Positions 17,095-17,136 of a stretch of DNA of 64,000 bases are shown here, one piece after another. The stretch's first letter is position 1. Each line of letters begins with the position of its first letter. Source of the DNA: Escherichia phage Pu-Krd-SF1; sequence record PQ249395; one strand, 5' to 3'. A program made the position numbers and the translations under genes. Below the pieces are notes generated by a model. That model made no database searches, was not told where the DNA came from, and saw nothing but the letters and a program-made list of their open reading frames with translations.

Positions 17095-17136
17095 GTTTAC
17101 AAGTTGGCAAGGTTATGGTATAGTAATCTTGCCAAC
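17095..17136 (+). promoter_or_regulatory. early promoter with -10 enclosed by an inverted repeat
   Basis: GTTTACA; GTTGGCAAG ... CTTGCCAAC flank TGGTATAGT. Confidence 0.6.

Follow-up and report, generated by a model that had tools for sequence, protein, structure and literature searches.

Conserved inverted repeats around the -10 element of two early promoters in Escherichia phage Pu-Krd-SF1: PeSL-type cassettes with a putative hairpin in read-through mRNA

In a stretch of 64,000 nucleotides from Escherichia phage Pu-Krd-SF1 (sequence record PQ249395, called "the window" below) two early promoters carry an inverted repeat that encloses their -10 element, one at 17095-17136 upstream of the small open reading frame (ORF) mobD.2 (site 1) and one at 54161-54205 upstream of dmd (site 2). 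The feature is genuine. It is conserved and selected for, its mechanism is only partly understood, and the class to which it belongs has already been described. With about even confidence we interpret both sites from their sequence as cassettes of the PeSL type (an early promoter combined with a stem-loop), in which a hairpin selected in the sense RNA would form in read-through transcripts only and could serve there as an intercistronic barrier or insulator; its biochemical output is what we infer.

The window is a Tequatrovirus sequence and T4-like. The 3 kb around site 1 are 100% identical to Escherichia phage Pu-Krd-SF5 and approximately 95% identical to T4. Its orientation is opposite to that of the T4 map, with the early genes running from left to right, and all promoter elements given below lie on the + strand. 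According to the annotations of T4T and Pu-Krd-SF5, mobD.2a and mobD.2 are separated by 60 nt (17093-17152), in which site 1 lies, and gene 41 (helicase) and dmd by 58 nt (54162-54219), in which site 2 lies. Both have AT-rich sequence upstream. A small ORF or dmd had been expected behind these promoters, and this is the case: mobD.2 (17153-17257, ATG at 17153, 34 amino acids) is preceded by the Shine-Dalgarno sequence GGAG at 17143-17146, and dmd (54220-54402, ATG at 54220) by GAGGAG at 54208-54213.

An earlier note on this DNA, made from the letters alone, had described the -10 element of both promoters as enclosed by a perfect inverted repeat. The enclosure was found at both places, with repeats longer than described. 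At site 1 the -35 element GTTTACA of the mobD.2 early promoter (17095-17101), which fits the T4 early consensus GTTTAC(N14)gtggTAttaT, is followed within the promoter spacer by the 5' arm AGTTGGCAAGGTTA (17102-17115; the RNA stem covers 17102-17116). The loop TGGTATAG (17116-17123) takes in the TGn motif (TG at 17116-17117) and all but the last base of the -10 hexamer TATAGT (17119-17124), and the 3' arm TAATCTTGCCAACT (17124-17137) is formed by the discriminator and the initially transcribed bases, with a predicted start at about 17131. These arms have a length of 14 nt and a complementarity of 93%, including one G·T, and surround a loop of 8 nt; the term perfect is therefore correct for the core GTTGGCAAG/CTTGCCAAC but not for the full arms.

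At site 2 the -35 element GTTTACA of the dmd early promoter (54161-54167) overlaps the TAG stop codon of gene 41. Two perfect arms of 9 nt, ACAAGACTA (54173-54181) and TAGTCTTGT (54190-54198), enclose the same 8-nt loop TGGTATAG (54182-54189), again made of TGn and five bases of the -10 hexamer TATAGT (54185-54190), and the predicted start lies at about 54197. In RNA, G·U pairs lengthen the 5' arm to 54168 and the 3' arm reaches 54203. With G·U pairs counted, each of the two RNA stems comprises 15 pairs and encloses a loop of 6 nt.

The two promoters agree with the sigma-70 consensus in 10 of 12 positions, and both possess a TGn motif and a 17-nt spacer (TTTACA-N17-TATAGT). Their designation as early promoters in the earlier note agrees with the fit to the T4 consensus, and the dmd promoter is recognized in the literature (PMC9391042). 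The start positions were inferred from sigma-70 geometry, approximately 7 nt past the -10 element. The two arms thus correspond to the spacer (about -29 to -16) and to the discriminator plus the first transcribed bases (about -7 to +7), which are mutually complementary, so that the invariant extended -10 element becomes the loop of a 13-15-bp hairpin. The arms fill promoter positions that the polymerase does not read base by base, which allows the tightest packing of both signals in 60 nt.

A chance origin of both repeats is unlikely. The probability of a perfect repeat of at least 9 nt around an arbitrary hexamer of this window is P=0.003, and of at least 10 nt P=0.0012. Repeats of at least 9 nt occur at 4 of the approximately 17 early-type promoters compared to an expected number of 0.05. 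Around 40 unrelated metagenome promoters with the identical frame GTTTACAAG-N12-TGGTATAGTA have background complementarity only and no such repeat, which is an argument that the repeat does not simply come with this type of promoter. The numbers of paired positions fall into two modes, one at the background level of 4-5 of 12 and a separate one at 12 of 12 formed by the T4-like sequences. The pattern scan of IMG/VR with TTTAC-N15-TGGTATAGT returned mostly chance matches; it served as a negative control and contributed a few T4-like contigs (Serratia CHI14, phiE142).

The earlier note had named a lack of conservation in related phages, together with a lack of transcript ends at these positions, as grounds for dropping its idea, but the repeats are conserved there and show compensatory changes. 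Pairing is kept in T4, other Tequatroviruses, Mosigvirus and Serratia phage CHI14. At site 1, T4 has a perfect 13-bp stem (GTTGACAAGATTA/TAATCTTGTCAAC), and the orthologous promoter of Mosigvirus the stem TTGGTAGGACTA/TAGTCCTACCAA, in which three positions differ from T4 on both sides; further stems round the same loop are found in Serratia phage CHI14 and phage phiE142. In a set of 21 distinct sequences, two-sided changes were observed at 12 of the 14 pairs and 91.5% of the cells were paired. If the partners were slid against each other only 26-60% were paired, and in 500 shuffles the observed values were not attained once. Protein-anchored retrieval from IMG/VR yielded five loci for Dmd and four for MobD.1, MobD.2 being too short as a query. 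Single positions can be followed through their intermediates: at one pair of site 1, T4 has A-T, whereas T2, RB18 and six metagenome contigs have G·T and the window has G-C; at one pair of site 2, T4 has G-C, the window G·T and a retrieved sequence (L006) A-T.

This pattern bears on the question of whether the palindrome is an operator to which a dimeric regulator of the early promoters binds. A dyad symmetry centered on the -10 element would suit such a protein, and the shut-off of T4 early promoters is still unexplained (PMC2988021, PMC3014915). However, the arms vary between the sites and between genera while the pairing persists, which is the signature of base pairing and not of a protein half-site, and only about one third of the early promoters of the window carry any such repeat. 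We disfavor the operator and regard it as hardly probable at all.

The repeats could also be without function, as a by-product of cassette duplication or of the templated mutation of quasi-palindromes known in T4. Templated correction can make palindromes more perfect, as is known from T4 mutagenesis, and the two sites are indeed paralogous copies that share 37 nt at 86% identity. Against this speak the survival of pairing across genera despite extensive sequence change, the natural G·T intermediates, and a strand-specific bias, since templated correction would not prefer G·T to A·C. An origin without function consequently appears quite improbable to us.

The strand-specific bias is visible in the imperfections of the stems. 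By our own count the two sites show 8 distinct imperfections within Tequatrovirus; read on the + strand, all 8 are G·T or T·G, and none is A·C. The ratio of G·T to A·C is 3 to 1 in Mosigvirus, and the stem core cells contain 25 G·U compared to 5 A·C. As both mismatches are equally likely a priori from one Watson-Crick transition, this bias marks selection on the single-stranded coding strand. Folding of the sense RNA gives -22.8 kcal/mol for site 1 and -21.4 kcal/mol for site 2 (z-scores -4.6 and -4.8), folding of the antisense RNA -15.8 and -10.1 kcal/mol, respectively, and the sense strand is more stable in 19 of the 21 sequences. Judged from these alignments, it is selection on the coding strand that keeps the arms paired. 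The simplest reading is that the molecule under selection would be the sense mRNA, and not a DNA palindrome or a protein site. The strand asymmetry is good but not conclusive evidence for this.

Elements of this kind have been described as PeSLs (promoter-early stem-loops) in the phage pairs RB49/phi1, T4/PST and KVP40/nt-1 (Arbiol 2010, PMC2839356; Comeau 2014, PMC4122927). Both papers describe them as intergenic and as combining AT-rich sequence with a strong early promoter, a stem-loop, a Shine-Dalgarno sequence and an ATG, list overlap with the -10 element among the commonest positions of the stem-loop, and mention G-T pairs; for T4/PST they give the promoter TTTACW-N17-TAYWAT and the stem "...-loop-TCNT" (PMC2839356, PMC4122927). 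Sites 1 and 2 have an AT-rich intergenic gap, a sigma-70 early promoter, a stable stem-loop and a Shine-Dalgarno sequence with ATG at the 3' end, and they lie in a plastic region. With the PeSLs they share this make-up, the stem overlapping the -10 element, the small variable ORFs and the insertion/deletion junctions, and the near-invariant stem columns T26, C27 and T29 read TCTT or TCCT, i.e. the TCNT motif. The hexamer TATAGT departs once from the published consensus TAYWAT (G at position 5). In these papers the stems are treated as terminators or attenuators and as recombination sites, whereas sites 1 and 2 are without a U-tract and the evidence favors selection on sense RNA.

The surroundings of both sites are variable. 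The comparison of junctions in related phages, which had been proposed as a check, revealed a breakpoint of the Mosigvirus homology at the -35 element of site 1: the homology forms an island from the -35 element (17095) to the end of mobD.2 (17254) in 131 records. Three extra ORFs are located upstream of site 1 in SA35RD, and two follow mobD.2 in RB5. The upstream context of dmd differs in Mosigvirus and Gaprivervirus, both of which possess an extra ORF before dmd (Gaprivervirus: phage VR7, L197 27-95; Mosigvirus: L198/L199). The promoter of the extra ORF in Mosigvirus, a homolog of RB69 ORF040c, has a 14-bp perfect stem over the Shine-Dalgarno sequence (TTCTCCAGTAGTTG/CAACTACTGGAGAA), and phage VR7 has a canonical terminator in place of the -35 region. 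A different gene downstream of the site-2 cassette was considered for one locus (L135) and rejected, as the BLAST alignment is continuous (95.7%) and the N-terminus of dmd has merely diverged. The fit to the PeSL description, together with this cassette behavior, places the element in a kind that is already known.

The folding energies and the plasticity are both of consequence for readings at the DNA level. The earlier note had suggested that the stem-loop occludes the -10 element in single-stranded form. For DNA this is not supported: the mismatches are strand-asymmetric, with G·T confined to the coding strand, hairpins formed in DNA are weak (-11.3 kcal/mol at site 1 and -6.7 kcal/mol at site 2), and the -10 element is located in the loop and not in the stem. 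Promoters recognized as extruded or single-stranded DNA hairpins exist, namely those of the phage N4 virion RNA polymerase and Frpo of the F plasmid. They resemble sites 1 and 2 in that promoter DNA contains an inverted repeat, but the latter have an ordinary duplex sigma-70 geometry (-35, 17-nt spacer, TGn, -10) and their asymmetry points to RNA.

A cruciform or hairpin might still act as a recombination hotspot, e.g. as a substrate of endonuclease VII, or switch the promoter off via a distorted -10 element. PeSLs recombine together and form mini-circles, with one crossover inside the loop of a stem-loop (PMC2839356); the Mosigvirus breakpoints fall at the promoter, and the 37 nt shared by sites 1 and 2 suffice for T4 recombination. 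Yet a G·T on one strand is an A·C on the opposite strand and weakens a cruciform, the weak DNA hairpins have loops of 8 nt, recombination requires conserved sequence only and not pairing, and the dmd-tifA amplifications in experimentally evolved T4 used scattered 6-10-bp microhomologies, not this element (PMC9391042). A function of the stem in DNA is accordingly improbable. The link to recombination and cassette exchange, which the earlier note had also raised, agrees with the PeSL literature and with the island beginning at the -35 element; the stem itself, as opposed to about 40 nt of conserved promoter sequence, is not singled out as the driver.

A further hint towards a mechanism arises from the position of the transcription start. 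As it is predicted within the 3' arm, the transcript of the promoter itself would be without the 5' arm, and the hairpin would be limited to read-through RNA. The expectation of a role in RNA is hence supported in general but not at the transcript 5' ends, where it had been sought. Transcription from upstream is available at both sites. Site 1 lies behind the early promoter 16304 before mobD.5 and behind the mapped middle promoter PmobD.3 (PMC2988021, Table 1), and site 2 stands after the uvsX-40-41 unit. A possible MotA-box middle promoter before dmd, at the end of gene 41 (54135-54158; TGCTTT at 54135-54140, 11 nt, TAAAAT), was rejected due to its short spacing, and none is listed there in the review table; if active, it would put the site-2 hairpin at a transcript 5' end.

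In the mechanism that we propose, each site would act as an early sigma-70 cassette that combines an AT-rich upstream region, the -35 element GTTTACA, a TGn -10 element, a short leader, a Shine-Dalgarno sequence and an ATG in a gap of about 60 nt. Transcripts of its own promoter would be hairpin-free with an accessible ribosome site. Read-through RNA, coming at site 1 from the mobD.5 early promoter and PmobD.3 and at site 2 from the uvsX-40-41 transcripts, would fold, and the hairpin might then provide an intercistronic barrier at the 3' boundary of the upstream cistron. Once the RNA has been cleaved or terminated further downstream, the hairpin could stop 3'-to-5' exonucleases, and/or it could cause polymerases that read through to pause or be attenuated. 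Such a barrier would make each promoter-plus-ORF cassette a portable, self-contained expression unit. The long stems (13-15 bp) and the loops, which are as short as the promoter allows, suggest a design for stability (exonuclease barrier, pause or attenuation) rather than for occlusion. In E. coli, intercistronic stem-loops of the REP (repetitive extragenic palindromic) type protect upstream mRNA from 3' exonucleases. They are likewise stable intercistronic hairpins past a stop codon and without a U-tract, but these host repeats are unfused to promoters, and a protective role at sites 1 and 2 is putative.

Several points weigh against the barrier interpretation. The covariation set of 21 sequences was partly picked for pairing, and the orthologs retrieved by homology are its unbiased core. 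If distinct column/state combinations over all 14 columns are counted, the excess of G·U is only 11 to 7 (p=0.24), and the stability edge of the sense strand is owed partly to the fixed loop sequence and not to selection. The strength of the stem is not uniformly maintained, as the T4 ortholog of the trna.4 promoter has a shifted 5' arm, a stem of only 7 bp and an 18-nt loop. In the literature consulted, no mapped transcript ends at either site and no T4 start-site or 3'-end data were found; the paper on GoF and gene 41 deals with the region upstream of gene 41, not downstream. Neither stem is followed by a U-tract (the tails are TGTCAAGG at site 1 and TGGTTAAA at site 2), and the terminator scan flags neither hairpin, yet it flags a nearby canonical terminator with UUCG loop and T-run at 16271-16288. 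Finally, the only experimental terminator test of the PeSL papers was done with a G/C-rich stem of RB49 (PMC2839356).

The last points also concern the possibility that the stems are efficient intrinsic terminators, as the PeSL papers label them, which would halt upstream transcription right at the next promoter. The RB49 stem cut downstream lacZ as strongly as rrnB T1 (PMC2839356), the Mosigvirus ortholog of site 1 was annotated as "rho-independent terminator" by prediction software, and the stem-bearing promoters have no separate terminator upstream. But the stem tested in RB49 is of a different, polyG/polyC type, and the U-tract is missing in the window as well as in T4 and Mosigvirus. Without a U-tract and without a flag in the scan, efficient intrinsic termination is unlikely, and we assign little probability to it. 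Intrinsic terminators and sites 1 and 2 have in common a stable intergenic stem-loop acting on RNA from upstream; the differences are the missing U-tract, the longer and A/T-richer stems, and a loop made of the -10 element instead of a UUCG-type tetraloop.

The arrangement of terminators in the window fits the idea that the stem deals with read-through RNA where no separate terminator fits. A hairpin-plus-T-run terminator is found directly before each of the promoters 16304, 19726 and 58766, none of which has a stem enclosing the -10 element, while such an upstream terminator occurs at 0 of the 6 stem-bearing promoters; these numbers are too small for significance. The junctions in which a terminator is followed by a promoter are located at 16271-16333, 19676-19755 and 58730-58795, and a further terminator at 48123-48140 precedes promoter 48228. 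They consist of a G+C-rich stem, a 4-nt loop (e.g. TTCG, GAAG) and a T-run.

If the hairpin forms in read-through RNA it could also work as a promoter-dependent translation gate, in that it removes the standby site and permits efficient translation of mobD.2 and dmd only from transcripts of their own promoters. The hairpin ends only 4-6 nt ahead of the Shine-Dalgarno sequence in read-through RNA, and promoters nested in inhibitory hairpins are documented (PMC3014915). The extra cost of opening the region from Shine-Dalgarno to AUG, read-through compared to own transcript, was calculated to be +5.0 kcal/mol at site 1 and -0.7 kcal/mol at site 2, and in this computation neither the Shine-Dalgarno sequence nor the AUG of the two sites is paired in a helix. 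An effect on the standby site is plausible from general knowledge, but direct pairing with the Shine-Dalgarno sequence would be the simpler way to occlude it. We consider a gate at sites 1 and 2 as rather unlikely, though less so than a terminator.

Direct pairing is what sibling promoters of the window exhibit, which clearly work as translation gates by placing the spacer arm on the Shine-Dalgarno sequence. At the denV promoter (9267-9320) the spacer arm 9273-9282 pairs with 9311-9320 including the Shine-Dalgarno sequence, and at the regB promoter (12484-12536; arms 12490-12504/12522-12536) and the nrdC.8 promoter (21165-21218; arms 21176-21189/21205-21218) the Shine-Dalgarno sequence is part of the 3' arm. 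Opening the ribosome site costs 11.7-16.4 kcal/mol extra in the read-through RNA of these three genes, and poor translation of this RNA is expected as a result. The denV stem has another sequence in T4 (TCTCCTGTAG/CTACAGGAGA) than in the window (TTCCTCCAAG/CTTGGAGGAA), and the Shine-Dalgarno sequence is covered in both. The text of the PeSL papers does not discuss this ribosome-site-sequestering sub-type. A known parallel is given by the T4 genes e, soc, 49 and I-TevI (PMC3014915), where the promoter is also located between the arms, RNA from upstream folds, and the internal transcript is without the 5' arm. There, however, the helix includes the Shine-Dalgarno sequence or AUG and the internal promoters are late, whereas sites 1 and 2 are early with the ribosome site outside of the helix. 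The denV, regB and nrdC.8 promoters do match this design, at early promoters.

Sites 1 and 2 are accompanied by a third promoter of their own type, that of trna.4 (1640-1678), in which the arms 1651-1661/1668-1678 (GATAGGGTAGT/ATTACCCTATC) surround a loop with the -10 element TACTAT. Taken together with the siblings, these promoters could reflect a general design of early cassettes, in which the spacer encodes an "anti-leader" that pairs, in read-through RNA only, with the 5' untranslated region of the same promoter. This generalization from sequence is tentative, and we would not count on it. Two observations were made beside it. A 14-pair hairpin at 60892-60926 connects the -10 region of promoter 60868 with the Shine-Dalgarno sequence and AUG of an ORF at 60924, with an extra opening cost of 8.4 kcal/mol in read-through RNA; this ORF is unmatched in T4T 16000-75600. 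The imm.1 promoter (48228-48287) has a spacer arm, CGTTCCTCTGTGGT, nearly as in nrdC.8 (21165-21223) and is without the complementary 3' arm, and it appears to be a paralogous cassette with a lost stem.

Conserved sequence extends well beyond the -35 and -10 elements in this phage. Most early promoters (e.g. 1670-1690, 5480-5500, 19756-19775, 21195-21215) share the leader …CTATCAACTAC…GGAG…AATAAAATG, and several also share an upstream TTTCACAAA motif. Two small ORFs at 920-1330 (ATG at 986 and 1319) begin with MKTYQEFIAEA... and MKTFKEFINEA..., and their match to T4 is limited to the first 30-36 nt or so (starts of ipIII and 61.1). They resemble genes for internal proteins (IP) that have a leader for capsid targeting, in an IP locus that is polymorphic, and each has its own early promoter. 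The homing-endonuclease gene mobD (17901-18680) is a single ORF of 780 nt in T4; the identical Pu-Krd-SF5 record annotates it as two pieces (17901-18128 and 18237-18680), and it may be disrupted. Eight tRNA genes are clustered at 2896-4281 as the counterpart of the T4 tRNA region. A search of the whole window with Rfam 15 at the gathering threshold reported these tRNAs only and no family match at either hairpin.

As this kind of element was published in 2010 and 2014, our finding is confirmatory and not new. The points added here are the selection on the stem in sense RNA, the absence of terminator features, and a parallel class at early promoters that sequesters the ribosome site. With such cassettes as units, T4-type phages transport, express and exchange small accessory genes, among them the anti-defence gene dmd and its neighbor tifA. 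The annotation "rho-independent terminator" should be avoided for these sites, and phage engineers who move or delete such junctions could better predict the effects. For T4 late genes it is proven that the fate of an RNA depends on the promoter from which it was started, and this rule appears to hold for early genes as well. If the anti-leader design is true, pairing with the Shine-Dalgarno sequence (denV, regB, nrdC.8) would tie translation to the promoter of origin; at mobD.2, dmd and trna.4, where the start-proximal leader is paired, the same would apply to stability or standby access. The output of early genes would thereby be insulated from upstream and middle-mode transcription, and the design could contribute to the unexplained abrupt stop of early protein synthesis minutes after infection.

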